Counted from the stretch's first letter, positions 1 to 46,500 are shown. The stretch is DNA of 64,000 nucleotides from Candidatus Woesearchaeota archaeon (GCA_038874655.1 JAVZBY010000003.1:22718-86717); one strand, 5' to 3'. Translations and numbers: made by a program. Notes: generated by a model from the sequence alone, not told the origin.

Positions 1-549
1 AAAATCTTTTGCAGATTCTTTTTCATATTCATCTTGTTTTACCCTTGCACCTTCTTTTAAATTTTCTACATTAATTTTTGATAATTTCCCGTAATCTTTA
101 AATTTAGAAACACTAAAATAAGTAGAACCATCTTCGCTTTTATATGCAATTCCTTTTTCTAATAATCTTTTTGATATTTCAATCATCTCATTTATTGTTT
201 CTGTTGCCTTTGGATAATATTCCACTTTCTCAATATTTAAAGTTTCTAAATCCTCAAAAAAGTACTTTGTATATCTCTCTGTAAATTCTTTTAAAGAAAC
301 ACCTTCTTTTTGTGAATCTCTTATTGTTTTATCATCAACATCTGTTAAATTCATAACATGAATTACTTCATAGCCCTTATATTTTAGATATCTACGCAAC
401 ATATCAGAGAAAACATAACTTCTCATATTGCCTATATGTGCAAAATTATATACAGTTGGCCCACAACTATATATTCTAACTTGTCCTGGGTTTATTTCTT
501 TAAACTCTTCTTTTTGCCTTGTTAAGGTGTTATAAAATTTTAATACCAT
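1..549 (-). CDS. cysS: Cysteine--tRNA ligase, N-terminal part; gene continues past the window start
   Basis: The minus-strand ORF starts with ATG at 549-547 and is not in the supplied ORF list because it is truncated by the window edge. Translation begins MVLKFYNTLTRQKEEFKEINPGQVRIYSCGPTVYNFAHIGNMRSYV, matching the class-I HIGH-type motif region of CysRS. Near the window edge it reads ...KESAKDF, consistent with the CysRS KxxxDFALWK region. Confidence 0.8.
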   Translation of the reverse strand, partial: MVLKFYNTLTRQKEEFKEINPGQVRIYSCGPTVYNFAHIGNMRSYVFSDMLRRYLKYKGYEVIHVMNLTDVDDKTIRDSQKEGVSLKEFTERYTKYFFEDLETLNIEKVEYYPKATETINEMIEISKRLLEKGIAYKSEDGSTYFSVSKFKDYGKLSKINVENLKEGARVKQDEYEKESAKDF

Positions 550-568
550 TTTAATTTAGATAATAAAC

Positions 569-1150
569 CTATTTTTTAATTTTTGTTTTAGGTAATTCTA
601 AATCAACCTTTTTTCCATTTAATTTAACTATTTTTCCTGGAATTCCAACAACTGTTGAATTACTTGGCACATCATGTTCAATTATAAAAGTATTAGCTCC
701 AATTTTAACATTGTCTCCAATAGTTATAGGACCTAATAAAATAGCACCAGTTCCTATTAAAACATTATTTCCTATTGTTGGATGTCTTTTACCTAGATGT
801 TTTCCTGTTCCTCCCAAGGTTACATTATGAAATAAAACACAATTATTTCCTATTTCAACAGTTTCTCCTATAACCACACCCATTCCATGATCAATAAAAA
901 AACCTTTTCCAATCTTAGCTCCTGGATGTATTTCAATGCCTGTTAAAAATCTCATAAACTGTGAAATTAACCTTGGCAAAAAAGGAACATTCAATTTATA
1001 TAAAGGATGACAAACATATCTATGGATTATAATAGCATATAAACTAGGATAAAGAAAAACTTCTAAATTTCTAAAAATATTGCCTTGTAATGCAGGGTCA
1101 TTTTTTATTGCTACTTTTACATCTTCAAACATTTTAAAATCCAATGGCAA
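569..1150 (-). CDS. cysE: Serine O-acetyltransferase (left-handed beta-helix hexapeptide acyltransferase)
   Basis: Sequence ...[46 protein letters not shown] shows hexapeptide repeats and the typical SAT core; adjacency to cysS is a common arrangement. Confidence 0.8.
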
Positions 1151-1221
1151 TGAATTTATAAAATTTTTTAAATTTTTATTTAAATTAAATTTTTATTTAA
1201 AATGAATCAAATAATTTAAAA

Positions 1222-1428
1222 ATGAAAAACATAAATATAAAAGCAAGAGTTATTGAGATAAAAGAAGTAAAAGAATTCGAGAAATTTGGAAAAAAAGGAA
1301 AATTAGCAATTGCTGTTATTGAAACAAAGGAAAAAAAAAGATATTTTCTAAATCTTTGGGATGAACAGATAGATTATATAAAAAAAGGAACTCATAGAAA
1401 TAATAAACGGCTATTTCAAACAATATAA
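1222..1428 (+). CDS. Hypothetical small protein (68 aa), Lys-rich
   Basis: ORF only; sits between the cysE and corA genes; no recognisable motif. Confidence 0.25.
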   Translation: MKNINIKARVIEIKEVKEFEKFGKKGKLAIAVIETKEKKRYFLNLWDEQIDYIKKGTHRNNKRLFQTI

Positions 1429-1561
1429 AGGTGAAAACTACCTAAATGTTAATAATTATGGTAGAATAGAAGTCCTGAAAAAATAAAAAAGTAAATAAAA
1501 TAAATAAAAAATACTAAAAAAAATAGTAAAATTTTTATTCTATTTACTTTATTAAATAAAT

Positions 1562-2488
1562 ATGCTAACAATCTACAGAAAAAGCCAATCTGATAAAGAA
1601 CTTATTACATTAGAAAAAAGCGAAACAGGATCTTGGATTAGCTTAATAAATCCTAATGATGAAGAAATCTCAAAAATATCACAAGAACAAAATGTTCCAG
1701 AAGATTTTTTAAAAAGCGTTAATGACCCAGATGAAAAACCTAGAATTGAAACAGAAAATGGTAATGTATTAATTATTATTAAAATCCCACATTTAAGAGA
1801 AAATTTTATTGAAACACTTTCTTTTGGTATTATTGTAGCAGAGAAAAATATAATTACTGTTTGCTCAACTGATAATATAATTATAAATGATATTCTATCT
1901 AATAAAATTAAAAATTTCTACACCACAAAAAAAACAAGATTTTGTTTACAAATACTAGCAAGAGCAAATAGAAATTATCAAAAATACTTAGATGATATTG
2001 AAAAAAATATTGAAAAAATTGAATCAGAGATAATGAAATCTTTTAAAAATGAGGAAATAATAAAATTATTAGGCATACAAAAAAGTTTAGTTTATATTAA
2101 CACAGCTATATTATCTAATGAAAAGGTCTTAGAAAAAATAATGACTGGTAAGCTATTAAAAATGTATGACGAAGATGAAGATTTATTAGAAGATATAATT
2201 GCAGATAACAAACAAGCAATTGATATGGTGAATATATTCTCAAATATCTTATCAAACACAATGGATGCATATGCATCAATCATTTCAAACAACTTAAATA
2301 TTGTAATGAAATTCTTAACATCTGTAACTATTATCTTAGCAATTCCTTCAATTGTAACAAGCTTTTATGGAATGAATGTTGAATTGCCATTTCAAGATTC
2401 TCATATAGCTTTTGTTTATGTAATTTTAATATCATCTGGATTAGCCATGCTTGCTTCTTATTTCTTTTTTAAAAAGGGGTATTTTTGA
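1562..2488 (+). CDS. corA: CorA-family Mg2+/Co2+ transporter
   Basis: 308 aa; C-terminal YGMNVELPF (GMN signature) followed by two hydrophobic helices. Confidence 0.85.
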   Translation: MLTIYRKSQSDKELITLEKSETGSWISLINPNDEEISKISQEQNVPEDFLKSVNDPDEKPRIETENGNVLIIIKIPHLRENFIETLSFGIIVAEKNIITVCSTDNIIINDILSNKIKNFYTTKKTRFCLQILARANRNYQKYLDDIEKNIEKIESEIMKSFKNEEIIKLLGIQKSLVYINTAILSNEKVLEKIMTGKLLKMYDEDEDLLEDIIADNKQAIDMVNIFSNILSNTMDAYASIISNNLNIVMKFLTSVTIILAIPSIVTSFYGMNVELPFQDSHIAFVYVILISSGLAMLASYFFFKKGYF

Positions 2489-2534
2489 TTTTTAGTTTAT
2501 ATTTTGAGAGTCTAATATAATTCTAATTATATCC

Positions 2535-2597
2535 TAAATAGTAAAATAAATAAATAGTAAAAAAATAGTAAAATAAATAAATAGTAAAATAAAGTAT
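2535..2597. repeat. Four tandem copies of a roughly 15-16 bp AT-rich unit (AAATAGTAAAATAAAT-like) directly upstream of the 2634 start
   Basis: Seen directly: taaatagtaaaataaa / taaatagtaaaaaaa / tagtaaaataaataaa / tagtaaaataaag. Confidence 0.5.
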
Positions 2598-2633
2598 AAA
2601 AATATAAGATAAAATTTCATAGGTGGGGAACTA

Positions 2634-3161
2634 ATGAAAAAATCTTTAAAAGCGCAAATAACTTTGTTTGTTGTTATTGGTTTGGTTGTTTTGATTGTGG
2701 GTGGAATGGCAATTTTTTATTTGAATAAAGACAATAAATTACTAAAAGAAACAAAAAAAGGTGTTTCTTTTTCTTCAGATAAAGATGTTTTTAAAGAGAG
2801 ATATGATAAATGCATGAAAGAAATTTTATTAGAAGGAATGTCTAAAGCATTAACTATTGAAAATGCAAATGGTTTCTTAGAACAATATTTAATACAAAAT
2901 TTTGAAAAATGCCTTTATTTAGGAGAAAAATCAACTTTAGGCTATAGTGTTGATTTTACAAATTTTGTTCCTAAAGTTAGGGTTTATGAAGATACTATTG
3001 TTTTTGAAAGCACAGGTGTTTTAATTGCAGAAAAAGACGGCAAAAAAATAGAAATAAAAGGAAATAGCTTTACATTGCCATTAAATGTTGTTCAAACATT
3101 AAAAACAGATGATTCTGGCAAATGTTTTAGAAGATTTCCAAATTGTTTCTCCAGATACTAA
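2634..3161 (+). CDS. Signal-anchored N-terminal segment (175 aa), probably the 5' part of a frameshift-split gene together with 3109..6780
   Basis: SD-like AGGTGGGGA at 2621-2629 precedes the start. N-terminus MKKSLKAQITLFVVIGLVVLIVGGMAIFYL is a transmembrane/signal anchor. The ORF ends 52 nt after the start of the overlapping large ORF, which is in another frame. Confidence 0.5.
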   Translation: MKKSLKAQITLFVVIGLVVLIVGGMAIFYLNKDNKLLKETKKGVSFSSDKDVFKERYDKCMKEILLEGMSKALTIENANGFLEQYLIQNFEKCLYLGEKSTLGYSVDFTNFVPKVRVYEDTIVFESTGVLIAEKDGKKIEIKGNSFTLPLNVVQTLKTDDSGKCFRRFPNCFSRY

Positions 3162-6100
3162 AGTTGTTTTTAGAATTAAAAAAGGAACAAAAGCACTAAC
3201 AAGTGATGATAAGCCTATAAAACAAATAAAAATGAAATTAATTCCAAGACCAAAAGAGGAAATATTGCCACAAGATTTAAGTATAATGATAGGCCCAGTT
3301 CTTTATAGAATTGAGCCAGATGGTGCTAAATTTGATCCTCCTGTAGAATTAAGTTATTACTATCATGACCCTGATCCTAATGAAGAAACAAACGAAAAAA
3401 ATTTCATGTTAAGCTATTACAATTATTTATCAGACGGACAATTTGTTGCTTATGAAACAAGCGTTGATACTAACAAAAACCTTATAACAGCAAAAGTTCC
3501 TCATTTATCAGACCCAGTTCCTGTAAGTGATTGTGGCTCATCTGCTAAAACTTATAAATTAGAAGATATTTTTGTCCCTAATTGTGATTTGATAAATAGA
3601 GATACTGTTTTTACAATTGAATCTAAAAAGCAGTTATTTTTTCATATAAAGGATTTTTATTCAATATTTACAACAAGAAAAAAAAATGAAGAAAAATATT
3701 TAATAAAAGGCATAAATGGGCAAGTTATAGATTATATGGAAAAATGCCAATTAATTCAACCTATATTTACAGATGCTAATGGAGATAGTCAACTTAATTA
3801 CCCTAATGATGATCCAGAAAAAGATTTGGATAAAGTTTTGTTGAGAATATCATCTTATTATCCTTATTTATGTGATGAGACTTGTAAAAATAAAATCAGT
3901 TCTGGAGATTATACTGAAGTTTGTAAAAAACTATGCACTTCTGACACAGCAAATTTATGCAAAAAATATTTTATAAAAGATGTGCCTGATCAATCTGATA
4001 ATGTGGTATGGAGATGGTCTAATGATGGAAATTATTATGATTCAAACCCTGAATGGGGTGAATATTTCAAAACAATAAAAGGCATAAAAGAAGATGGCAC
4101 TTATTTTGAGCCAGAACCTGATGATAAATACAAAGGCAAAAAAATAACAGATGATGTTTTTTATGGAGATGGCATTAATGATGAATTTGCTAATAAGTTA
4201 TTACTTTATCCTTCTACTGAGGATATATATGATGGTGCTTACTTCCTTTGCAAACCTGAAAATGGCATGAAACCAGCAACTCCTAAGTATGCATGGGGTT
4301 ATGAAAATTTACAAAACTTTGGCGGCAGGGCAGAATTTAAATTTTTCTTTGATGAAAATTCTTGTTTTAATCCACATAAAACACAGAATAATAAAATTGT
4401 AATAACACATCATAAATATTTAAAAATCACAAACTTCAAAATAAACGACAACTCTTATCCATTGCCAGAAAAAGGAAAATCAAACTTTGCATTTGATTAT
4501 GTTGATAGTAATAGTGTTTATGAATTAACCTTAAAAGTAAAAGAAAATAAATATTGCGAAGGAACTGGTTGTTCACAAGACACTTATATAAAAGAAGGTG
4601 AAAATGTTGTTGAATTAGAATTTTCACTTGATGAAAAAGAATTAGCAAATTTAAAAGAAGGTGATACAATAAAAATAAGTGAATTAGTTGGAGATGGCTC
4701 TGTTTCATTAATTGGCAATGGATTTAAAGAACAAGCATGCACAATAGACCAAAGAAAAACTTATTTAACTAATTATAATTCAAAATGTTCTTTTGATACT
4801 GATAATGTTAATATAAATAATAATGAACTAACTAACGTATTAAATAAAATAACTGATGATAACAAAGCAATAAAAACTTCAAGTTTACTTGATTCAAAAG
4901 AAGTTAAACAATTTTATGCTGCAAATGGAGTTGAATTAACAACAGAAATGATGTTTACTTGCCCTACTGATGATAATAATATTGTATGTAAAAATGCACA
5001 AAAAGGATGTTATGATAAGAAAGAGACATATGTAGGTGATGTTATTGTTGATGTTGATACTATTTTTACTTATTTGGGTATGCAGTGTATTCCAACTTCT
5101 CCAAGTGATATGACTCCAAAATCAGGAACAAATCAACAAGCTAAGTGTTCTGAGGTTTTAGGTTATGAGTATGAAGATTTTGATAATAATGGAGATATTA
5201 CAAAATGCACAATAAACTGCCAATGGGACACTAGTGTTTGTAAAAAAAGAACAAATGATTTTAGTAATTATCAGTTTGCAGGCAAACCTGGAAGTGCTTG
5301 TGTTGGTGGAAAACCAAATGGTGTTTTAGATAAAGATGAGCAATGTGATCCTTTGGTTAATCCGCCAACTGAAAAAAAATGCAATCAATTAGATTCTAAT
5401 AGATATAAAGACACTGCAAATGTCATATTAACTTCGAACTACCATTGCAAAGAAGATTGCACATGGGATTATGTAGCAAGATGTGATTATTTGGCATTAG
5501 GAGATAGTGGAAAATGCACAAAAAAACCTGATGGATCTGAGAGTGTTGACAGTAATGAATTTTGTGATATAGACGATGACGGAACACATTTATTAAATGG
5601 TAAAACATGCACAGATTACAAAGGAATGCCAGATATAGGAAGCCTTTATTCTGGCGGTGTTTTAAAATGCAAAAATGATTGCACTTATGACTTTTCTGGC
5701 TGCATTAAAAAAGAATCTGCAAGATGCAGAATAATTAATGGTGAAAAAATAGAACCTCCTAATGGTCAGATTTCAAATACTATATGTTCTGACTTTTCAT
5801 GCACTTGTGAATGCAAAGATATGGAAGATAAAGATTTAGATGAAAAAGACTTTAAAACAACATGCGAATCTTTATGCCAAAACAGATATGGTGGGAAATT
5901 TATTTATTATTCAGCTGGAATTTCATACAGACAAGTATCAAATGATTTATGTAATATGCCTACCTGCTATGACACAGATCCTAATAATGACCCAACAATA
6001 TTAGGAACTGTACAGGTTAAGTATAAAGAGGGTGAAAATTGGAAAAGCGAAACAAAGACAGATGAATGTGAGACTGATGGAAAAAAAACAATAGAATATA

Positions 6101-6780
6101 AGTGTGATTTATTAGAAAAAAAAGGATATACTACAGAGACAAAAGATTGCTCAACTTATAATAGTGGAAAAGATGATCCAGACTTTCCATTTGGCTATTG
6201 CTCTAATGGAGTTTGTAAATCCTCAACTGTACAAGCAAGATGTGATGCTAATTCAAAAGCTAATCCACCTATAGAGCCAGATACTTATGTTTCATTCACA
6301 GATGTTGATGGCTATACTTTTGAAACTTGCTGTAATGATAATACTTATTGTGTTGGCCGCGATACTAATTGTTATGAAAACGGCTATTTCACTGAAAAGA
6401 AAATCTGTAATTCAGGAACATGGGCTATTTGTGGCTATAAGAATTATAATGACAAAAAAACAATTCCAGAAATTAATATTGGTGGAACAATATATTACTG
6501 CGATTTAAACACCAATAAATGGCGAACTTCAAAAATTTATGATGGAAAACCAATAAAATATTGTGGCCCTGATTCACAACCTTTTTTAATTAATTCTCAA
6601 GGAGAAGATTGTAATTCAGGTAATAAGGACTGTGTTTATCTATGCAAAGCAGGCTATTTTTACGCAAATGATTATGCTCCAGGAAAAAAGGTTTATGCAT
6701 TAGATGGAACAACAGTAATTGCAATTTTAAATGAAGACACAACAACAGCTTCAAGTAAAAAATACTGGGTTTTGCAATAA
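3109..6780 (+). CDS. Large Cys-rich extracellular protein (1223 aa as called), rich in N-glycosylation sequons; lacks its own signal peptide
   Basis: Long ORF with many Cys residues. A repeated motif C-x-x-D-C-T-[WY]-D occurs as KCTINCQWDTSVC, HCKEDCTWDYVARC and KCKNDCTYDFSGC. Many NxS/T sequons. The N-terminus MILANVLEDF is not hydrophobic. An in-frame stop lies 3 codons upstream of the ATG. Confidence 0.7.
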   Translation: MILANVLEDFQIVSPDTKVVFRIKKGTKALTSDDKPIKQIKMKLIPRPKEEILPQDLSIMIGPVLYRIEPDGAKFDPPVELSYYYHDPDPNEETNEKNFMLSYYNYLSDGQFVAYETSVDTNKNLITAKVPHLSDPVPVSDCGSSAKTYKLEDIFVPNCDLINRDTVFTIESKKQLFFHIKDFYSIFTTRKKNEEKYLIKGINGQVIDYMEKCQLIQPIFTDANGDSQLNYPNDDPEKDLDKVLLRISSYYPYLCDETCKNKISSGDYTEVCKKLCTSDTANLCKKYFIKDVPDQSDNVVWRWSNDGNYYDSNPEWGEYFKTIKGIKEDGTYFEPEPDDKYKGKKITDDVFYGDGINDEFANKLLLYPSTEDIYDGAYFLCKPENGMKPATPKYAWGYENLQNFGGRAEFKFFFDENSCFNPHKTQNNKIVITHHKYLKITNFKINDNSYPLPEKGKSNFAFDYVDSNSVYELTLKVKENKYCEGTGCSQDTYIKEGENVVELEFSLDEKELANLKEGDTIKISELVGDGSVSLIGNGFKEQACTIDQRKTYLTNYNSKCSFDTDNVNINNNELTNVLNKITDDNKAIKTSSLLDSKEVKQFYAANGVELTTEMMFTCPTDDNNIVCKNAQKGCYDKKETYVGDVIVDVDTIFTYLGMQCIPTSPSDMTPKSGTNQQAKCSEVLGYEYEDFDNNGDITKCTINCQWDTSVCKKRTNDFSNYQFAGKPGSACVGGKPNGVLDKDEQCDPLVNPPTEKKCNQLDSNRYKDTANVILTSNYHCKEDCTWDYVARCDYLALGDSGKCTKKPDGSESVDSNEFCDIDDDGTHLLNGKTCTDYKGMPDIGSLYSGGVLKCKNDCTYDFSGCIKKESARCRIINGEKIEPPNGQISNTICSDFSCTCECKDMEDKDLDEKDFKTTCESLCQNRYGGKFIYYSAGISYRQVSNDLCNMPTCYDTDPNNDPTILGTVQVKYKEGENWKSETKTDECETDGKKTIEYKCDLLEKKGYTTETKDCSTYNSGKDDPDFPFGYCSNGVCKSSTVQARCDANSKANPPIEPDTYVSFTDVDGYTFETCCNDNTYCVGRDTNCYENGYFTEKKICNSGTWAICGYKNYNDKKTIPEINIGGTIYYCDLNTNKWRTSKIYDGKPIKYCGPDSQPFLINSQGEDCNSGNKDCVYLCKAGYFYANDYAPGKKVYALDGTTVIAILNEDTTTASSKKYWVLQ

Positions 6781-6869
6781 ATTTAAAATAAATTTTTCTT
6801 TCTTTTTTTAAAAAAAGGATAAAAAAGATTAAATTTATAAATTGTCTTACTTTTCTTACTTATAAGAAA

Positions 6870-7121
6870 GTGATAAATATGTCAATTTTAGATATTAAAA
6901 CAGCTACAATAACTGAAAAAGGCCAGATTGCTATTCCTAAAGAGATAAGAAAAAGATTTAAAATTGGCTCAAAAGTTGCAATTATTTCTTTTGAAGATAG
7001 AATTGAATTAAGACCTTTAGAAATAATTAATGAAAAAATATTTACTGCAATAGCTAGTGAAAAGTCATTATCTAAAGAATGGAATAGCAAAGAGGATGAA
7101 GAAGCATGGAAGAATTTGTAA
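6870..7121 (+). CDS. mazE: MazE/AbrB-like (SpoVT/AbrB swapped-hairpin) antitoxin
   Basis: ...KGQIAIPKEIRKRFKIGSKVAIISFEDRIELRPLE is a typical AbrB-fold DNA-binding segment; overlaps the downstream toxin start by 16 nt. Confidence 0.65.
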   Translation: MINMSILDIKTATITEKGQIAIPKEIRKRFKIGSKVAIISFEDRIELRPLEIINEKIFTAIASEKSLSKEWNSKEDEEAWKNL

Positions 7122-7438
7122 AAGGAGATGTTGTTGTTTTGCCTTTTCCTTTTTCTGATTTAAGTAATTCTAAAAAAAGGCCTGCTTTAGTTGTTGCAAA
7201 ATTAAAAAGTGATGATATTATTTTATGCCAAATAACAAGCCAAAATAGAATTGATGATTATTCTATTATTTTAGCAAATGATGATTTTAAGCAAGGTAGT
7301 TTAAATTTAACCAGTTTAATAAGAGCAAATAAAATATTCACAACAGATAAATCTTTAATTCTTTATAAAATAGGTACTCTTAAAGAAAATAAAATAAAAG
7401 AAGTTGAGGCAGCACTAATAAAAATATTCAAAGAATAG
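7106..7438 (+). CDS. mazF: MazF/PemK-family endoribonuclease toxin
   Basis: KGDVVVLPFPFSDLSNSKKRPALVVA matches the PemK/MazF N-terminal signature (GD-h-h-x-h-x-F, K-x-RP-x-LVh). Confidence 0.75.
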   Translation: MEEFVKGDVVVLPFPFSDLSNSKKRPALVVAKLKSDDIILCQITSQNRIDDYSIILANDDFKQGSLNLTSLIRANKIFTTDKSLILYKIGTLKENKIKEVEAALIKIFKE

Positions 7439-17594: not shown

Positions 17595-19412
17595 TCAACA
17601 ACTAGAATATTTTTTAAGTAAATTGAAAATTTCTTGTTTATCTGTTTCTGTTCCTGGAAAATAATTATCTGCCCAATACATTAACTCATTAAAAGCTTTA
17701 TCAAAACACCAACCATCAACTTTCATTCTATACAAAGCAATTGCTAATCCTGTTCTATGTTGTCCATATTTACAATGCACAAAAATTGGATAATTATCTG
17801 AATCTTGCAAAACACTTAAAACATTATTCATCCAAGATTCTTTTGCTCCTGGATAAGGCAAATGTATATATTCTAAACCTGCTTTCTTTGCAATATAACT
17901 ATTATCAATACCTTGTAAATCTAAAACAGTTTTATAACCTTTTGAAGCTAACCATTGATATCCTAATTGTGAGGGTTGTGCTCCTGCTGCTATATTACTA
18001 TTAATCTCTCTAAACAAAACTATATTTTCATTATTAGATAAAGTAGATAATTGAGTGTATTTATTTTTTGGAATATCATCAAAATCAACATAATCTATTT
18101 TTAGATTTGGAAAATTTAAAACAAAACTAAATTGTGAAGGCAACTTTTCAGCCCAAACTCCAAAATGATTAGCAACTGCTCTCTCAGAACCATCTGACAA
18201 GGTATTTATTATTCTAGGCACACTATTTTCTTCTATAACCAATGTTGTTGAACCTCCACCATCCATATTAATCATATTTGTGCTTCCATATTTCAAATGA
18301 ATTTCTCCTAACTCTAATGCAGAAACCCCTTCACTAATTCCTGGATTTCTGCCATCAACAACAATTATATTAAGCCATTTTTCATTTTCATCTAACCCAA
18401 TTGAAGTTCTTGGATTTAAATAATCATAACCCTCTTTATGTTGTGGATTTCCTTTATAAAATCTATCTAAAATTTTTCCATTTTCAATAATATGATTAAA
18501 TCCTGAGATTGCATATTTATAATTATTAGGCATGTTTGGCATCATATATATTTGATTATCCTCGCTAACAAACAAAGTTACATCTGGTTTAAACTCAGGA
18601 TTAGAATAAGGTTTTCCATCATAAGCAGCAAAGCCATTTACCTCATTTGTATTGCCTATATCAAAACCACCTCCATTTATTGCTAATTGTAAATTATTTT
18701 GTCTTAAAAAATCAGAAGTTGTCATTACATTAGGCGCTATTTTAGGAGTAACATAAAATCTTAATGTTGGATCATACAAATCAACCTTAACCACAAAAAT
18801 GTGTAAAGGTCTTGGATCATTAATTTCTTCATATTTATAAAAAATTCCTCTATAAATAGGGTTAAATCCTACTAAATTTTTTGGTATGTAATCTTTTGAA
18901 TATTTTAAATCTATAACTTTATTTTTTAACTCCAATTTTTGATTTTCATATTTTATTGTTAAATTTGTATTTAATTCTGTTATTATCAAAATTTTCTCTT
19001 CCTCATCCAGATATGTTTTAGTTAAATTAATATCAAAAAAAGTATATTCAATATTCAAACCTTTTTTTTTAAAATCCTCAACATTTAAACATTCATTAAA
19101 CTTTTTTTCTAGATAATATTCTAACTGCTCATCCAAATAATTAAGACCATATCTCTCTATTGTTTTTTCTGTTGAAATTTTTAAACATTGTTGAACAGAA
19201 AACTCAAATGAATTCTTTAATGCTGTAAAATCAAAATTTCGGTTATTTTGAGTTGCTTTTTTAAATAATGCTCTATTAAATAATATGAACAATAGTAAAA
19301 TAAACAAACCTATAATTATAAATAAGGTTATTTGAGTTTTTTTGTTAAATATTTTTTTAGTGGACATAATAATATTAAACAACAACTTATTAAAATAACT
19401 TATTAAAAACAT
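17595..19412 (-). CDS. Membrane-anchored protein with a central DGGGS-containing domain and a C-terminal Cys-based (CX5R) protein phosphatase domain
   Basis: N-terminal hydrophobic helix ITLFIIIGLFILLLFILF; NMDGGGSTTL motif; C-terminal VHCKYGQHRTGLAIALY (the HCxxGxxR active-site motif of tyrosine/dual-specificity phosphatases). Confidence 0.55.
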   Translation of the reverse strand: MFLISYFNKLLFNIIMSTKKIFNKKTQITLFIIIGLFILLLFILFNRALFKKATQNNRNFDFTALKNSFEFSVQQCLKISTEKTIERYGLNYLDEQLEYYLEKKFNECLNVEDFKKKGLNIEYTFFDINLTKTYLDEEEKILIITELNTNLTIKYENQKLELKNKVIDLKYSKDYIPKNLVGFNPIYRGIFYKYEEINDPRPLHIFVVKVDLYDPTLRFYVTPKIAPNVMTTSDFLRQNNLQLAINGGGFDIGNTNEVNGFAAYDGKPYSNPEFKPDVTLFVSEDNQIYMMPNMPNNYKYAISGFNHIIENGKILDRFYKGNPQHKEGYDYLNPRTSIGLDENEKWLNIIVVDGRNPGISEGVSALELGEIHLKYGSTNMINMDGGGSTTLVIEENSVPRIINTLSDGSERAVANHFGVWAEKLPSQFSFVLNFPNLKIDYVDFDDIPKNKYTQLSTLSNNENIVLFREINSNIAAGAQPSQLGYQWLASKGYKTVLDLQGIDNSYIAKKAGLEYIHLPYPGAKESWMNNVLSVLQDSDNYPIFVHCKYGQHRTGLAIALYRMKVDGWCFDKAFNELMYWADNYFPGTETDKQEIFNLLKKYSSC

Positions 19413-25710: not shown

Positions 25711-26475
25711 ATGAGATATAAAAAATTAAAAATGAAAAGTAAAAATAAAAAATCACAAATAAGTATTTTTATTATAATTGGCTTAATAATTCTTATAACC
25801 ACATTATTAATAATAAACTTAACACCTAAAAAAATAAAAATAACAAGTTCTACAAAAAATAACACCATTAAACAAAATTTAGAGAATCCTGATTATTATT
25901 ATGTTAAAGATAGATTAGAAAAATGCATAAACAATTTATCCGAAGAAGCAATTTTAAAGATAAGTAATCAAGGATTATTAAATCCAAAAGAATATATTTC
26001 ATCAAATAAGATTGTTATTGGCTACTTATACTATGATGGAAAAAAGAATATTCAAAATGAAAAAGAATTATCTAATTCTATAGCAGAATATATAAAAAGA
26101 AATATTGAAAGTTGTGCAAAAAAAGAATATATTGAAATTGATAAAGACAATATTAATGTTATTATAGTTTTATTAAAAGATGAAATAAATATAAAAGCAG
26201 AGTTTTCAGAAAAAATTAACTATAAAAACAAAAAAATAGATATAACTGAAATTTATGTAAATAAAAAATCAAATTTATTAAACTTAGTAAAAGCAGCTAA
26301 TAAAATTATTAATAATTTAGATAAAGATGAATGGCTTAATTTAAATGGCATAGATGATGAAAAAATTAAAGTTAATATTATAAAGATCAGTGAAAAAACC
26401 TGGATTTATGAAATAATTCAAATTAATGAAACTGAAAATAATAACTCACTATATAGATTCGCAATTAAATATTAG
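25711..26475 (+). CDS. Signal-anchored secreted protein, unknown function
   Basis: N-terminus KKSQISIFIIIGLIILITTLLIINL is a transmembrane anchor. Confidence 0.4.
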   Translation: MRYKKLKMKSKNKKSQISIFIIIGLIILITTLLIINLTPKKIKITSSTKNNTIKQNLENPDYYYVKDRLEKCINNLSEEAILKISNQGLLNPKEYISSNKIVIGYLYYDGKKNIQNEKELSNSIAEYIKRNIESCAKKEYIEIDKDNINVIIVLLKDEINIKAEFSEKINYKNKKIDITEIYVNKKSNLLNLVKAANKIINNLDKDEWLNLNGIDDEKIKVNIIKISEKTWIYEIIQINETENNNSLYRFAIKY

Positions 26476-29585: not shown

Positions 29586-29717
29586 ATGACAAACATAAAC
29601 ATTGAAATTCCTGATGAATTACATAAAAAATTAAAAATTCAATGTGCCATAGAAGAAAAAACATTGAAAGAATACATTGTCAATGTTTTAGAAGAAAAAG
29701 TAAAAAAATTAAAATAA
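29586..29717 (+). CDS. Unannotated 43-aa ribbon-helix-helix (CopG/Arc/MetJ-like) protein
   Basis: MTNINIEIPDELHKKLKIQCAIEEKTLKEYIVNVLEEKVKKLK reads as a beta-strand plus two helices with the RHH register. It is too short for the ORF track and lies directly upstream of the 1275-aa surface protein. Confidence 0.45.
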   Translation: MTNINIEIPDELHKKLKIQCAIEEKTLKEYIVNVLEEKVKKLK

Positions 29718-29821
29718 AATTTATAAAATTTCATAAATTAAAGAAAATGAAAAAAAATTTAAATCATATAAAAAAATATTTAAACAATTTATTTTTACAA
29801 AATTCTTATCATCTTAATTCT

Positions 29822-32800
29822 ATGAAAAGCCATGCATTCAACCCCCGAAAAAAACGCATGGCTTTTATTTTTTTTATAATTAATCTATTATTTCTAATTT
29901 TAATTTTAAATAATGTTTACTCGGTTGATTTTTCCCCTGTTGAATTATCTCCAAAAAACGCAACAACTCTTGATAATTTAATTTGCTCTTGGAACACAAG
30001 TTTAAATCCTAAAGTAAATGTTAGTTGGTATAATGGCTCTAATCTTTATAGTGTTGTAAAAGAAACAACAAGTATACAAATTTTAAATAATTTCATTGCA
30101 AGAAAAGGTGAAACTTGGAATTGCACAGTTGTAGAGTGGAATGATGCTAATAATATTGGAAGTAGTTCAATAACAATTAGAAACGCACCTCCTTTTCAAC
30201 CTAATGTGGTTAATGACACAATAGAAGAAGATTCAACCTATATAAGAGATATATCAACCACTGATCCAGATGGTGATGAAATAATTTCCTATATATGTAT
30301 TCCAAACACATTCACAATTAATAATGGAATTATCTCTTGGACACCAACATCAAGTAATGTTGAACCTGAGAAATCAAAATTATATAACTTTACATGTCTT
30401 ACCTTAGATTCAGAAGGATTATCAAATTCAAAAAAATTTTCTCTCAATGTTACTGCAAGAAATGACCCTCCATTTTTTAACCCTAGTTTAGTAAATATTT
30501 CCAAATATGAAAATCAAAAAATACAATATATAATAACTGCAAGTGATGAAGAGAATCCAACAGGAAAGTTTAATTTAACATTTGACAATAAAATATGTCC
30601 TTATGATTCAAAAACAGCATATGAGTTAGTTAGAATTAACAATTACACTTTTATTTTTCAAGTAATAAATAATCAAACACTTCCTTATAGTTTAGTTGGA
30701 AACTGTTCTATAACTTTAAGTTTATATGACCCTATGGATACTAATATCTCTACTAATAGTTCTATTAACATTGAAGTTATTGCAATAAATCATCCTCCAA
30801 TAATAACCAATATTGAAAGCAAATCAAGAAATTATAGTCAAGGAGAATATTTTAATTTATCTATAAATGCAACTGACATTGATGAAAACGAATTAATAAA
30901 TTTCTTTGTTATTACACCTACTTGTAGCTTCAACCCATGGAATATAACGATATTAAACAACAGTAGAAATGCTTCTGCATTATTAAAAGCAACTCCGTTA
31001 AATGAGAGCCATATAAAATGCAAGCAAATAAAAATAAGAGCAAGTGATACAAAAAATGCTTATTCTGAAGTTAATCTTACTTTAAATATTACCAATGTAA
31101 ATGATCCACCAATCATAAAAGAAATAAGCAATCATATTAATAATAGTTTTTCAAATATAAACTTAAGTAATTTAACTGCTTTTGCTTATGTTAAATTTAG
31201 ATATTATATAAATGCTACTGATCCTGACATTGAATATGGAACAGATCCTAGTGATTCTTTAACATTTAATATAAATTCTTCATTATGTTTTGATTGTCCT
31301 TTTATAAGTATTAATTCAAATACAGGAGAAATAAATTTCACACCTAACTTAGATAATATTGGAAAAACTTATTCTTATAAAGTAAATGTCAGTGATAAAT
31401 ATGGTTTATTTGACGAAAAAATACTTAAAATAACCATTTTAAATAATAGTGTACCCTATTTTAATCAAACACCACCAGATATTTATGCAAAAGAAGATAT
31501 TTTATATACCTTAAAAATTAATGCTACTGATAAAGAAGATATAAATGTCAGCTTTTTTCTAAACACAACTTTATTCAATATTACAAACACAGGATTAATA
31601 AATTTCACACCAACATGCCAAGATGTAGGAAACTACTCTGTTTTAATTACAATAAGAGATACTTATGGCGCAGAAAACTCTAGTATCATGAGAGTATATA
31701 TAAATATGAGTCCTGATTTACCTATAATAATACCAATACAAAACACTACATTATTTGAAAATGAAGCTTATTATTTAGAAATAATTGCTAGTGATGATGA
31801 TTTATTATGTAGTCAAGATGATAATTTAATTTTCAGTTATAATTTTATAAATGGTTCTGAAAGTTCATTAAGTGATTTTATTTTTGAAAATATAAACAAT
31901 AGTGGAAATTATAAAGCCCTCTTATCATTCCAAACTATTTTAGGTAGTCAAGGAATTTATATAATCAATTTCAGTGTGGTTGACAATTATAATTTAAAAA
32001 ATTCATATTTATGGGAATTAACTGTAATAAACAGAACAAATCCTCCTGTAATTAATAACATAACACCTTATGGTAGTCCTTATACAAATTATTCAAATGG
32101 TTGGAGACCCAGATCAAATTTTTTAGGTGATTACACAAATATAAATATTTCTGAAGGAATGACCATTATTTTTGATCACAATAGCACAGATCTAGATAAA
32201 AACACTTTAAATTTTACATGGTTAAGAAATAATCAACAAATAGGTGATAAAAAAAACTTAAGTTTATTCTTTGATTATGAAAGTCATGGAAATTATAACA
32301 TAACACTTATAGTTTCTGATATCGTAAATAATAGAATTGCTAACTCTGTTTCTTTTTCATGGAACATAAGTGTTAGAAATAATAACAGACCTCCTATTTT
32401 AAATAATTCTCTTCCTAATATCACAGTAAATAAAACTATAAGTATTCCAAATTACTTTACTTGTAGAGATATTTTGCCGGGCTATATTTGTGATGAGCCA
32501 AGATTTTTTGACCCTGACAATGATAATTTAACATTTACACATTCAAATGCTACAAAAGTTTCTATTTCCATAAACAAAAATTCCATAAGCTTAACTGCAT
32601 TGGAATTAGGCAATGAAACAATAACCTTTTATGCATCTGATGGAACTTACACAATTGAAAGCAACCCTGTTATTATAAATGTAATTAGTTTGCCAGAACA
32701 AAATCAACAAGTCAGTCAATCTACATCGACAAGAACCTCACAAAGCACTAATTATGTGCCTTATTCTGTTTTACAAGAAGTGGAAAAAGAAAAAGAGATT

Positions 32801-33469
32801 TATTTAGATATTATTGTTCCAGAGCAATTAACAATTTATCAAAATGAAACAATAAGACAAGTAATTAACATAAAAAATGAAGGCAACACCACTTTAAGAG
32901 GTATTATATTATCTGCATCCACAAATTCGAGCTCTGCTGATTTAAGCTTTTCTAATTCATTTATCTCAGAATTAAAACCAAATGAAATTGTAAAAACAGA
33001 TTTAATCATAAAAGATTACAAATTAAAAAACAATTATGAGATAATAATATGGGCTAATGTCACAGAACCTAATTACAGAGATAAAGCAATTATTTATGTT
33101 AATGCAATAGAAAAAACTAGAGGAAATCAAAGTATAACTGCAACAAAAATAACATTTGCACAAGATTTATTATCAAGTAATCCTGAATGCATAGAATTAA
33201 ATGAATATTTAAAGAAATCACTTAATTATATGGAAGCAAAAAATTATGAAGAAGCTGAGAAAATTATTGATTCTGTAATCCAAGGCTGTAAATACTTAGT
33301 AAGTCAAAGTAAATTAAAAGAAGAAAGTCCAAAAGGGTTGTTATTAAATTTAAAAATAACCAATCCCTATATAAGAGGTGCTATAATTTTAACAATTTTA
33401 GCAATAATAACTATTGTAGCTATGACAATTAAATTAAAAAAATCAAATAACGAAGAAAACAATCTATAA
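29822..33469 (+). CDS. Cell-surface protein with multiple cadherin/Ig-like repeats, N-terminal signal peptide and C-terminal TM anchor
   Basis: Signal MKSHAFNPRKKRMAFIFFIINLLFLILIL from ATG 29822; the called ORF extends back to 29642, and alternative ATGs lie at 29747 and 29642. Recurring module boundaries NDPPFF / NHPPII / NDPPII / NPPVINN / NRPPILNN; very many NxS/T sequons; C-terminal IILTILAIITIVAMTI then KLKKSNNEENNL. Confidence 0.65.
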   Translation: MKSHAFNPRKKRMAFIFFIINLLFLILILNNVYSVDFSPVELSPKNATTLDNLICSWNTSLNPKVNVSWYNGSNLYSVVKETTSIQILNNFIARKGETWNCTVVEWNDANNIGSSSITIRNAPPFQPNVVNDTIEEDSTYIRDISTTDPDGDEIISYICIPNTFTINNGIISWTPTSSNVEPEKSKLYNFTCLTLDSEGLSNSKKFSLNVTARNDPPFFNPSLVNISKYENQKIQYIITASDEENPTGKFNLTFDNKICPYDSKTAYELVRINNYTFIFQVINNQTLPYSLVGNCSITLSLYDPMDTNISTNSSINIEVIAINHPPIITNIESKSRNYSQGEYFNLSINATDIDENELINFFVITPTCSFNPWNITILNNSRNASALLKATPLNESHIKCKQIKIRASDTKNAYSEVNLTLNITNVNDPPIIKEISNHINNSFSNINLSNLTAFAYVKFRYYINATDPDIEYGTDPSDSLTFNINSSLCFDCPFISINSNTGEINFTPNLDNIGKTYSYKVNVSDKYGLFDEKILKITILNNSVPYFNQTPPDIYAKEDILYTLKINATDKEDINVSFFLNTTLFNITNTGLINFTPTCQDVGNYSVLITIRDTYGAENSSIMRVYINMSPDLPIIIPIQNTTLFENEAYYLEIIASDDDLLCSQDDNLIFSYNFINGSESSLSDFIFENINNSGNYKALLSFQTILGSQGIYIINFSVVDNYNLKNSYLWELTVINRTNPPVINNITPYGSPYTNYSNGWRPRSNFLGDYTNINISEGMTIIFDHNSTDLDKNTLNFTWLRNNQQIGDKKNLSLFFDYESHGNYNITLIVSDIVNNRIANSVSFSWNISVRNNNRPPILNNSLPNITVNKTISIPNYFTCRDILPGYICDEPRFFDPDNDNLTFTHSNATKVSISINKNSISLTALELGNETITFYASDGTYTIESNPVIINVISLPEQNQQVSQSTSTRTSQSTNYVPYSVLQEVEKEKEIYLDIIVPEQLTIYQNETIRQVINIKNEGNTTLRGIILSASTNSSSADLSFSNSFISELKPNEIVKTDLIIKDYKLKNNYEIIIWANVTEPNYRDKAIIYVNAIEKTRGNQSITATKITFAQDLLSSNPECIELNEYLKKSLNYMEAKNYEEAEKIIDSVIQGCKYLVSQSKLKEESPKGLLLNLKITNPYIRGAIILTILAIITIVAMTIKLKKSNNEENNL

Positions 33470-42403: not shown

Positions 42404-43570
42404 TTAGTTATTTCTCTTTTTAAGAATAAAAATAATCAAAATTATATTCAATAAAATTAAAATTATAACACCTATAATTAAAATATTTAATTGAAATTTA
42501 TTTCCTTGTCCAATAACTTTTGCACTCACATAATTTTTAAAATTCACCGAATCTGGTGATACATAAGCAGTATAAGTTTTTTCAGAAATTTTATCTTCAT
42601 AAATAACCTTTGTAGAGAGCTCATATTCACCTATAGTTAAACCTTCTGTATTCCAATACGCATTCATAATTGAAGTTGATTTTTCATTAATACTAACAGG
42701 AATTGCATTAAAAGTTGAAATTAATTTATTATCTTTAAAAACATCAACTTTTCCTTCTGCCTTAATTTGCTTGTTCCATTTATTTCTTAAATAGATATCT
42801 AGTTTTGCAATTTGACCTATTTTAAAATTATTTATTTCTATTTTTTCAATTTCAACTTCTAAATTTCCAACATCAAATTTTTGATAGAATTCTAAAATCT
42901 TAGAATCATATTCTAATGTTGCTTCTAAAACATAGCTTCCAGAATGTTCAGTTTGCCAGGTTAAAATAAAACTTTCTTCTTTATTCGACTCTATTGACTT
43001 TGATTCTGATGTTGCTTTATATAATTCTTCATTTGTTGGACCCTTAATTACTAAATTAATTTTTGCATTTTCTATTTTTTCCTTTCCAAAATTTTTTATT
43101 GCAAATGTAAAAATAATAGGCTCATTAACTTTTGTATTTGTTATAAATAAATTACCCTCTGCATATTTTCCAGGATAGGGTACATTAACTATTATTTTAT
43201 GCATTACTGCAGGAGCTGCCATTATAACATCATTTTGCATTTCTCTAGGTAATTCCAAAACAATTAAAGAACATGATCTTTCACCTGGAGGTAATTCATT
43301 TGGTAGTTGAATCTTATAATTAATCCATGTTTCTTTATTTTCAATAATCATCGTTTCTTTATCAAGTGAAATATATTTTGCTAATTCTCCTTCTTTCGAA
43401 ATTATTATTTTAGTAGGTGTATCATCAACAACTACTCTAAAAGCCCCTTCTTGTTGAAATTGATTAAAATCAAACTTATTTTTAGCAGGAGCTATTCCTA
43501 ATCCAAAGATCATATTTATATTTACTAAAAACATAATTAACATAATAAATTTTAAAAATATTTTTCTCAT
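42404..43570 (-). CDS. Surface protein (388 aa) with N-terminal signal and C-terminal TM anchor; translationally coupled to the giant gene
   Basis: Its start ATG overlaps the stop of the 2485-aa gene (ATGA at 43567-43570); C-terminal NILIIGVIILILLNIILIIFIL then KKRNN. Confidence 0.5.
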   Translation of the reverse strand: MRKIFLKFIMLIMFLVNINMIFGLGIAPAKNKFDFNQFQQEGAFRVVVDDTPTKIIISKEGELAKYISLDKETMIIENKETWINYKIQLPNELPPGERSCSLIVLELPREMQNDVIMAAPAVMHKIIVNVPYPGKYAEGNLFITNTKVNEPIIFTFAIKNFGKEKIENAKINLVIKGPTNEELYKATSESKSIESNKEESFILTWQTEHSGSYVLEATLEYDSKILEFYQKFDVGNLEVEIEKIEINNFKIGQIAKLDIYLRNKWNKQIKAEGKVDVFKDNKLISTFNAIPVSINEKSTSIMNAYWNTEGLTIGEYELSTKVIYEDKISEKTYTAYVSPDSVNFKNYVSAKVIGQGNKFQLNILIIGVIILILLNIILIIFILKKRNN

Positions 43571-46500
43571 GCCTGCTCACCCACTATATAAATTGTTACA
43601 TATTTTGGGCCGCCAGGCTCATACATCGGAACTGTTATATTAATATCAATTTGTGCAGTATCATGTTCATCACTATAATTTAAATTTCTTAATAATGTGG
43701 AATTTGAAATTGATATATCTGTCATATTTGCCCATTCTGTTTGTGAATTTGCATAATCAAAAGAAGGCATTTCACTAGTATTATCTGCTTTATATCTAAA
43801 ATAAATTGTATTTAAAGGCGCCATTATAAATGGTGATTGATTAGCACCAATTCTTGTAATATTAACAACAATATTACCATTATTCTCTATTATTAGAGGT
43901 GGATAACCATTATCAGTATCTTTTGATTCTAAAATATTCATTATTCCAAAATCAATTGAATTAACAGTTAAATTTATACTTAAAAAAGATTCAATTGTAA
44001 AGTTCCATGCTAGACTCCATAGACTATAATTAAAACCATCATATGCCCGAACACTCCAATTAATTAGTCTATCAACACAAAAATCATAATTTGGTTGATA
44101 ACTTGTATCAGAAACATTAATACTAACATCTGGACCACATTCGAAAGTAGAGGAAAAACTAATATTTATTGTATAATTTATATCATCATAATCTAAATCT
44201 GAGCTATTAAACAGAAATAAAGGTTTTCTTTCATGTATAGTATGATTATTGTTTGTTGGGGTTATTAATATTGGAATAGTTGGTGGACTATTAACAATTG
44301 TTGTTTTTGTTGAATTATAATTACTTGAATCAATACCATCGTATGCTTTTATAGTGCAGTTCCATATTTCATTCTTTTTTGTATTAGAACTGGCTATAAA
44401 TGATATTAAAGTATTTGTGTTATTATTCACACTAACATTTCCTGATGAAAATAAATTAGTTCCATTATACCAAAAATATTCAACTCTTAAAGAGGTGTTT
44501 AAATCATCAACGATAGTTGCATAACAATTTAAATTTGATGTGGTATTTGGCTCATTAGGTAAAATTTGTATGTTTGAAACTCTTGGAGGGGAATTTAAAT
44601 TAATTCTTACCTTTGTACTATTTTTAGTAATTCCATCTTGATAACCATCATTAGGTGTTACTGAGCAAATTAGTTCATCGTTTAAATTAAACGCATATCT
44701 TAATAATTCATTATTAGTTCTATTTAATATACCATAATTATATTCATTTAGAATTTCTTCATCAGATAAAATATAATTATATATTTTGATTTCATCTATA
44801 AACCCATTATAAGGTGCTTTTCCTGTATTATGTAAAGCCCAATTTGACAAACCACTAGATGCACCAATAACTAAATTTAAAATTGAGTTTGAAATATTAC
44901 TATTCACTTGAGAAGAATTTTTATTCATACCATTAACATATAATTTAAAAATATCTCTATTTAAAGTTAATAACAAATGTGTCCAATTATTTTGTTTTAT
45001 CGTCTCATTACTAATCACTTCATTTCCAAACTTTCTAATAATTAATGCTGAATCTGTTGTGTTTATTGAATATCTACCACCTAATATTAAATTTTCCCTG
45101 GAATCAAAGGTACCTACTTGAAAAACATCCTTATAATTAGATAAATCTAAAGTAAAATTATAAACCTGTGAACCTGTTTTATTCAATTTAAATACAAAAA
45201 TAACATTATTTGTTGAATTTAACCAATAAAAACCTAGGCCATAAATATCATTATTTGAATCAATTAAAATTTTCTGTATGCTATCATTAAATGGTGTTGG
45301 ATTTAAAATATAATTCCATAAGTTATTACCATTTTTATCAAACTTCATCACATTAATATAGCTATCTATTGGTTGATTTGCGATTCCTGCAATTATTAAA
45401 TTATCTTCACTATCTACCTTCATATCTTGAAGTGTATCATTATATATTGTTGGGTTTGTAGTAATATTGAAAAGATTCACTCCTGTAGGTGAAAATTTCA
45501 CTATTCTATACTGAAAATTACCTAAAAGTTGATCATATCCTCCTATATAATACGAACCATCTAATGCCTTAACAATAATATTAGCAGAATCAATTCCTGA
45601 ACTAATTTGAGGAGTATAATTCCACAAATTTACACCATTTTCATTAAAAGCTGAAACAAACCAATCATAAACAGTTGTTGCTTTAATCCCCACTGCAATT
45701 ATCAATGTATCATTATAAACTAAAACATCATTATAAAGATCTGTTCCTGATGTCGGATTAAATGTTCTATTCCATAAATAAGTTCCTGTAGAATTATATT
45801 TAACTAAATAATGACTATGCCCTACTACTGAATCATATATATATCCTGCTACATAAATGTTATTTCTTGAATCTACATCTACACCTAAATATCTATCATG
45901 ACCTAAATTTGGATAAGTATAATTAAAAAGTAAAGTTCCATTTGGTGAAAATTTCATAATTATTTGATCAATAGAATAAGGGTTATTATTACCTGCTCCA
46001 ACAGCTATAAAATTATCTTCATTATCAACTATTAAATCTGTTAAATATTCATAATATGTATCATCATTTAAATCATTTAAAAAGTAATTTTTTCTAAATT
46101 CATATAAAGTTTTGTTTTTATTATTTTCATTTAAAGAAACTCCTGGATAACCATTAAGTAAAAATATTGAATATATTCCATTACTCAGAATATTATCTAT
46201 TACATCAAACCTTGTAGGCTTTATCCATAATGAAATAGAGATATTATTACTTTTTAGTAAATTTGTATTATTAACATAAATAAAATTAGTGCCATTAAAA
46301 TTATATCCTCCAAATACCTTACCAAATTTTCTTGACCAATTTAAATTATTTGAAAAATTTATACTAGTATTATAGCCACTGTAATCTTTTGTAAAAGTAT
46401 TATTACTTCCTCCTTCAAACGGCAAATACAACAAATAAATACTTTGATTATTTTTATACCAAGTAGTTATATTTACAACTTGATCTCCATCTGCATCAAA

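Follow-up and report, generated by a model that had tools for sequence, protein, structure and literature searches.

Two overlapping reading frames of a woesearchaeal genome as the halves of one frameshifted gene for a tethered, cysteine-rich surface protein

The subject of this work is a pair of overlapping open reading frames (ORFs) in a 64,000-nucleotide stretch of DNA from a Candidatus Woesearchaeota archaeon (GCA_038874655.1 JAVZBY010000003.1:22718-86717), which is referred to as the window throughout. An earlier note on this DNA, made from the sequence alone, had proposed that the two ORFs are one gene broken by a frameshift. The comparison with their homologues strongly supports this proposal: ORF1 and ORF2 appear to be the 5' and 3' halves of a single gene split by a +1 frameshift. 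The break is probably the result of a very recent inactivating mutation in one member of a multi-copy, fast-evolving family of surface proteins. A frameshift by itself is a routine event; the biological point is the family that is resolved by fusing the two halves. The family is uncharacterised and widespread, and in it a conserved N-terminal module (N-module) of ~300 residues carries hypervariable, Cys-rich ectodomains that largely avoid the N-x-S/T sequon of N-glycosylation. The features needed for the argument are the following, with lengths in amino acids (aa).

2634-3161, + strand: ORF1, 175 aa (NCBI QXE31_03045, MEM3374174.1), the 5' half, with the anchor and the N-domain.
2649-2723, + strand: N-terminal membrane anchor, K-A-Q followed by a 23-residue hydrophobic helix; helical over residues 5-32 in the AlphaFold2 (AF2) model.
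2730-3101, + strand: N-domain, made up of a four-stranded sheet and two helices; C60 (2811-2813) and C93 (2910-2912) are its invariant cysteines.
3101-3105, + strand: A5 run (AAAAA), the shift site named by the earlier note; possible but disfavoured.
3109-6780, + strand: ORF2, 1223 aa (NCBI QXE31_03050, MEM3374175.1), the 3' half.
3119-3130, + strand: most probable interval of the inserted base, GGC AAA TGT TTT AG, AAATGTTTT, in the linker between the two domains; best in both the profile and the codon scans, within an allowed interval of 3103-3158.
3130-3525, + strand: domain 2, a predicted ZU5/GAIN-like beta-sandwich; modelled alone by AF2 with a predicted local distance difference test score (pLDDT) of 89.3 and a predicted template modelling score (pTM) of 0.83.
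3502-3510, + strand: H-L-S tripeptide, a candidate H-x-S/T site of autoproteolysis, in the last beta-turn of domain 2.
3532-6645, + strand: Cys-rich ectodomain body of ~1000 residues; the 60 Cys of ORF2 all lie here, and there are no sequons.
53987-57112, + strand: intact paralogue of 1041 aa, a single ORF with the anchor, the N-domain, domain 2 and a Cys-rich body; 64 Cys and no sequons.

ORF2, in the +1 frame with respect to ORF1, overlaps it by 53 nucleotides (nt), its ATG being 50 nt upstream of the ORF1 stop codon and three codons behind a TAA of its own frame at 3100-3102. The coordinates of both ORFs and of the A5 run, and a stop at this distance from the ATG, had been given in the earlier note and were all confirmed from the sequence. 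No other pair of same-strand ORFs in the window has a large out-of-frame overlap. As had also been claimed, ORF1 encodes a signal anchor and about 150 further residues, with the hydrophobic anchor at residues ~8-30 of 175, and ORF2 has no signal peptide, no hydrophobic N-terminus being seen. The window has a GC content of 24.5%, and a calculation from the base composition puts stops at ~9% of random codons; because ORF2 remains open over 1223 codons at such a rate, it is best taken as real coding sequence. Removal of one A from the A5 run gives the junction ...LKQMILANVLE... and a fusion of 1381 aa, which agrees with the roughly 1400 aa that had been estimated. At NCBI, both halves are listed as separate hypothetical proteins on a 204-kb contig of a Candidatus Woesearchaeota metagenome-assembled genome (MAG), presumably because there was no close homologue to trigger pseudogene calling. 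For annotation purposes, QXE31_03045 and QXE31_03050 ought to be treated as one frameshifted gene.

The evidence that carries this reading comes from the relatives. Residues 1-1200 of the fusion were searched with phmmer against 1.84 billion cluster representatives (E <= 1e-3), giving 525 matches; the alignments of the 150 matches listed were examined, 148 of which are not ORF1 or ORF2 themselves. Among these 148, 62 are uninterrupted proteins of 264-1495 aa in which a single alignment stretch runs over the junction (fused residue 157/158), their residues ~3-300 aligning with fused residues ~3-310. None of these 62 full-module homologues is split, and the only listed matches ending short of the junction are ORF1 itself and one 136-aa sequence. 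The closest listed relative of ORF1, P0006 (42% identity), is of 136 aa and ends before the junction. The same continuity is seen within the window, where BLASTP aligns residues 25-297 of the fusion with residues 21-283 of the intact paralogue in one alignment over the junction (E = 1e-10). A family hidden Markov model (HMM) was built from the 62 homologues and the window paralogue; it gives 98.4 bits to ORF1 alone, 122.8 bits to the first 164 residues of ORF2, and 212-236 bits to the fused reconstructions. AF2 modelling of the fused N-module (30 sequences; pLDDT 82.8, pTM 0.74) shows the anchor, the N-domain, a short linker and an all-beta second domain, with a pLDDT of ~98 at the junction residues 151-170. 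The comparison with relatives thus bears out the single-gene proposal of the earlier note: both the 62 listed homologues and the window paralogue align through the junction as single genes, and no full-module homologue was found with a second gene bearing its own signal.

It is worth pointing out that all these relatives are distant. The best homologue of the fusion, P0003, has 29% identity; it was considered as an ortholog and ruled out, its locus not being syntenic, which leaves it as a paralogue-type relative. A word-index homologue search with the fusion returned ORF2 itself only and no close relative, the same type of search with a profile of the N-module alignment returned only ORF1, and neither GTDB representative genomes nor JGI metagenomes gave a match in DNA scans with exact patterns that span the junction and allow a variable gap. 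No ortholog or intact allele was therefore found in the collections searched. The family is multi-copy, since four genes in 64 kb share the N-domain: the split gene and the paralogues at 17595-19412, 25711-26475 and 53987-57112.

A second line of evidence for the unity of the gene is the composition of ORF2. The earlier note had described ORF2 as rich in both Cys and sequons; the first half of this description holds (60 Cys), while the second does not, as there is not a single N-x-S/T. With 95 Asn and 170 Ser+Thr in ORF2, 12.6 +/- 3.2 sequons would be expected, and none of 2000 shuffles was as low. The window paralogue has 0 sequons against 9.5 expected, and the 62 homologues, which come from other samples, have 133 against 348 expected. 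By comparison, 34 other genes of the window have 79 sequons against 71.5 expected, and housekeeping genes are at 1.1x. This depletion can be read as the sign of an exported family that has been selected against N-glycosylation, and it argues against an evolution of ORF2 as a cytoplasmic protein without a signal. Two classes of surface protein with opposite behaviour can be told apart in this genome, the sequon-free, Cys-rich ones and those in which sequons are enriched more than 2-fold. The latter are represented in the window by an Ig/PKD-type surface protein at 29642-33469 (65 sequons, 28 expected) and by a LamG-type surface protein of 2485 aa at 43567-51024 (126 sequons, 53 expected).

These results also bear on the possibility of a functional gene fission, that is, of two genuine products, one consisting of the anchor and the N-domain and the other a large protein on its own. 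Whole domains would be kept in both products, because the break is located exactly within the interdomain linker; a stand-alone protein of anchor and N-domain exists at 25711-26475 (254 aa), and NCBI annotates two proteins. However, ORF2 has neither signal nor anchor and is still Cys-rich and sequon-depleted like the exported members of the family, and none of the 62 listed full-module homologues is arranged in this way. Those listed matches in which domain 2 begins no more than 20 residues from the N-terminus mostly lack an initial Met and look like truncated gene calls, whereas the ones in which Met is present are proteins of another architecture with a C-terminal anchor. The ORF2 start itself is not convincing either. 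Upstream of its ATG there is no Shine-Dalgarno-like motif, and behind it no hydrophobic N-terminus; such motifs stand before ORF1 (GGTGGGG) and before the paralogue (AGGAG), although the Shine-Dalgarno sequence is a weak discriminator here, being present at only 12 of 45 longest-ORF starts. Furthermore, codon usage around the ATG is better in frame 0, and the ATG stands 50 nt ahead of the ORF1 stop. With the lesion placed downstream of it, at ~3119-3130, the ATG at 3109, read out of frame from GAT GAT, probably arises by chance and is not a genuine start. Functional fission is to our judgement the least likely of the explanations considered, with a very small chance of being right.

The location of the lesion was approached in two ways. 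Deletion of one base anywhere in 3101-3159 restores a stop-free fusion of 1381 aa in every reconstruction scored, so an open frame is obtained all along this stretch. When the reconstructions were scanned with the family HMM, the score peaked at ~235 bits for sites 3116-3130, with the reading ...QTLKTDDSGK(V/C)LEDFQIVSPD...; the A5 site gave 227.3 bits against 234.7-236.1 for 3119-3128, about 8 bits worse. In a scan of codon usage, with a table made from 24 genes of the window, the peak was at 3119-3122, sites 3123-3130 were within 1-3 bits of it, and the A5 site was 11.2 bits worse, because the +1 reading there needs the codons CAG (2.1/1000) and CTG (0.5/1000), while frame 0 uses common codons over the same stretch. 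The homologues have linkers such as LKTN-AQGILLEE, LNADGLTT or LNQNGPTT, and frame 0 reads LKTDDSGK here. On these comparisons we hold, with moderate confidence, that frame 0 is the true frame to ~3122 (...TLKTDDSGK) and that the +1 frame has taken over by ~3127 (LEDFQIV...). Since the family profile and the codon usage agree on a change of frame at ~3122-3127, the lesion most likely lies in GGCAAATGTTTTAG and not in the A5 run that the earlier note had named, which was rejected as the preferred site. In this placement, the last 11-18 residues of ORF1 are probably out-of-frame read-through. The peptides that would cross or mark the junction have been predicted for each case: TDDSGNVLEDFQIVSPDTK, TDDSGKVLEDFQIVSPDTK and TDDSGKCLEDFQIVSPDTK for restoration or bypass at 3119-3128, QMILANVLEDFQIVSPDTK for a shift at the A5 run, CFR/RFPNCFSR for the tail of a truncated ORF1 product, and MILANVLEDFQIVSPDTK for an independent start of ORF2.

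From these results, a mechanism for the loss can be outlined. The intact protein of ~1381 aa would begin with the anchor and its K-A-Q, followed by an N-domain of ~125 residues with the two conserved Cys, by the beta-sandwich ending in H-L-S, and by an ectodomain of ~1000 residues. An extra base in the linker between the N-domain and the beta-sandwich, most probably within 3119-3130, would shift the frame to +1. The genotype as assembled would then be expected to give an anchored N-domain with a short nonsense tail from ORF1, and the ectodomain would be either not made or not exported, because ORF2 lacks both a secretion signal and a credible start. We infer that the cells do carry this lesion and have no bypass for it. 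The mutation would have to be recent, since the 1223 codons downstream of it are still open and free of sequons. The locus resembles other frameshift-disrupted genes of prokaryotes and MAGs (unitary pseudogenes or annotation splits), which also consist of two adjacent same-strand ORFs, in different frames, collinear with single-ORF homologues, the downstream one lacking separate signals for start and export. It differs from them in that no close ortholog was at hand, so that NCBI called two hypothetical proteins, and in that no secondary decay is visible.

The most serious competitor of a recent inactivating mutation is a sequencing or consensus (polishing) error, in which case the organism would have an intact gene, with the extra base present only in the deposited sequence. 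The earlier note had suggested a homopolymer error of this kind and had asked for an independent assembly. Logan contigs of SRR30574052 are 100% identical to the window over 505-7231 (6727 nt), with no difference in the length of the A-run, and the genes called on them are again of 175 aa and 1223 aa; two different assemblers thus agree over 6.7 kb. An indel error is also unlikely a priori, because the genes of the window contain 870 A/T runs of at least 5 nt, 167 of them of at least 7 nt, and have been read with no other frame break, including an ORF of 2485 codons; this indicates a high indel accuracy of the assembly. Besides, the favoured site offers only an A3/T4 context, and the alternative A5 is short as well.

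Several points nevertheless weigh against an inactivating mutation at the favoured site, and some of them speak directly for an error. The organism has been found in only one sample, so the Logan contig may share reads with the MAG, and no second, independent genome confirms the lesion. ORF2, open over 1223 codons, keeps the family traits of 0 sequons and 60 Cys, and its freedom from secondary decay is equally expected of an intact gene with a one-base error in the consensus. The position of the frameshift, exactly on the border between two domains, leaves both modules whole, as a functional fission would also do. Lastly, the 8- and 11-bit preferences for 3119-3130 come from about 10 codons of a variable linker, and without an ortholog the relatives do not give the ancestral sequence at the site. 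Taking both sides together, we consider a consensus error unlikely, at rather less than one chance in four, and a recent inactivating mutation remains the probable explanation.

Another group of explanations accepts the frameshift as real but assumes that it is bypassed or switched, by programmed +1 frameshifting, by transcriptional slippage or by slipped-strand phase variation, so that the ectodomain would be made conditionally. Surface proteins are classic targets of phase variation, the undecayed state of ORF2 would be accounted for, and on A-AAA-A the tRNA-Lys could re-pair perfectly (from AAA at 3102-3104 to AAA at 3103-3105). The locus shares with the well-known cases of programmed +1 frameshifting (prfB, Ty1 and antizyme) the +1 position of the downstream frame and this opportunity for re-pairing. 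It differs from them in that the A site has neither a slow nor a stop codon, and in the absence of a stimulator and of conservation: the 62 listed homologues and the window paralogue are all encoded without a shift, the codons that follow the candidate sites in frame 0 are in common use (ACA, 29.8/1000; AGA, 19/1000, the main Arg codon) and are neither stop nor rare, there is no Shine-Dalgarno-like stimulator upstream, and the predicted RNA fold of 3095-3220 does not stand out (z = -0.93). Moreover, profile and codon usage put the change of frame downstream of the only perfect slippery site, by ~20 nt. To our knowledge, programmed +1 frameshifting is essentially undocumented in Archaea. The comparison with the contingency loci of Neisseria, Campylobacter and Haemophilus leads to a similar outcome, for these are also surface-protein genes interrupted near short A/T runs, but slippage-based switches use runs of 7-9 nt or more, and the tracts available at this site are only A5 (3101-3105), A3 (3120-3122) and T4 (3125-3128). 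A bypass or switch is thus improbable. More improbable again is its most specific form, in which the full-length protein would still be made at a controlled low level, by +1 recoding on UUA-AAA-ACA or by on/off switching in the population; were it true, we would be looking at an archaeal symbiont with conditional expression of a tethered, possibly self-cleaving and releasable surface protein. Of the four explanations in the earlier note, therefore, recent pseudogenisation fits best, homopolymer error is weakened, and phase variation and programmed frameshifting are disfavoured.

The architecture of the fused protein, with the frameshift set aside, deserves a closer look. Neither Pfam nor NCBIfam has a family for ORF1, ORF2 or the N-module. 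At the N-terminus, K-A-Q-ITLFVVIGLVV resembles, in sequence, an archaeal class III (prepilin-type) signal, in which a basic residue, G/A/S and Q are likewise followed by a hydrophobic helix of ~20 residues. As in type IV pilin-like proteins, the anchor helix of the model runs on into a long helix that lies against a four-stranded sheet. The pattern [KR]-[GAS]-Q with a hydrophobic stretch is present in most homologues: in its strict form it is found in 41 of the 63 N-module sequences scanned (the 62 homologues and the window paralogue), and most of the others have it visibly. There are differences from the pilin-like proteins, too. The Pfam models for class III signals and archaeal pilins matched none of ten N-termini at E up to 10 and none of 30 members at E up to 0.01, and genes for a prepilin peptidase or a pilus were not identified adjoining the gene; S at position -1, which is common in the family, is atypical for a class III signal. 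The anchor may simply be an uncleaved signal anchor.

The N-domain that follows is marked by C60 and C93, which are invariant columns in the N-module alignment. It looks like a general tethering module, because the same anchor and N-domain head two other proteins of the window. In the first of these (17595-19412, - strand; 605 aa), they are fused to a NAGPA phosphodiester glycosidase domain and a dual-specificity/Tyr phosphatase domain; in the second (25711-26475, + strand), they are followed by only ~100 further residues.

Domain 2 appears, from its model, to have a ZU5/GAIN-like fold. In Foldseek it matched the ZU5 domain of ankyrin with TM 0.54-0.61 at a probability of 0.99-1.00, and more weakly the GAIN domain of BAI3 (4dlo_B; probability 0.69, TMq 0.37). 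Membership is not seen at the level of sequence, where domain 2 matched neither ZU5 nor GPS of Pfam and no PDB sequence at E < 0.05. The domain is not restricted to the present architecture, and among the listed matches it also stands alone in many other surface proteins. In P0038, P0056, P0067, P0118, P0131, P0150 and others, a signal peptide or Gly-rich N-terminus is followed by domain 2, a C-terminal hydrophobic helix and a basic tail of the RRR type. A comparison with TIGR04213 (PGF-pre-PGF) gave weak matches for 4 of 30 members, the best with E = 8.5e-4, and none for the window protein at E up to 0.1.

The tripeptide in the last turn of this domain is of particular interest. Its His is invariant in 29 of 29 sequences, and the N-module sequences have HFS/HFT in 51 of 63 and HLS/HLT in 6 of 63. 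H-x-S/T tripeptides are self-cleaved in PIDD and Nup98 (PMC3210808), and in microbes the same motif is self-cleaved in the recently described GAIN-like MAIN domains, by which releasable ectodomains are kept on the cell surface (bioRxiv 10.64898/2026.05.12.724683). By analogy, the H-L-S of domain 2 is a possible self-cleavage site. The likeness to the MAIN domain of B. subtilis YfkN (Brogan & Rudner, bioRxiv 10.64898/2026.05.12.724683) and to the ZU5 domains of ankyrin, UNC5 and PIDD (PMC3210808) extends to the beta-sandwich, to the near-invariant H-hydrophobic-S/T in the last beta-turn, and to the position of the domain between a surface tether and a large ectodomain. The differences are that the tether here is an N-terminal helix with the N-domain instead of a C-terminal sortase or transmembrane anchor, that there is no sequence match to Pfam ZU5 or to solved structures, that the motif is H-L-S rather than H-F-S, and that cleavage in the present case is predicted. 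Since the tether is N-terminal, cleavage would free the C-terminal, Cys-rich body. If the H-x-S/T of this family proves autoproteolytic, it would mean N-terminally tethered, releasable ectodomains in DPANN archaea, and such ectodomains could bear on the contact of these ultra-small cells with their hosts.

Conservation appears to be confined to the N-terminal ~300 residues. The Cys-rich body has no Pfam domain, and none of the 150 listed matches besides ORF2 itself aligns beyond fused residue ~342. Directly 3' of the split gene there is an overlapping, toxin-antitoxin-like gene pair (6870-7121 and 7106-7438, + strand). The first gene, called with 80 aa in Logan, has a weak match to PF04014 MazE_antitoxin, and the second (7106-7438) is in our judgement, from its sequence, MazF/PemK-like.

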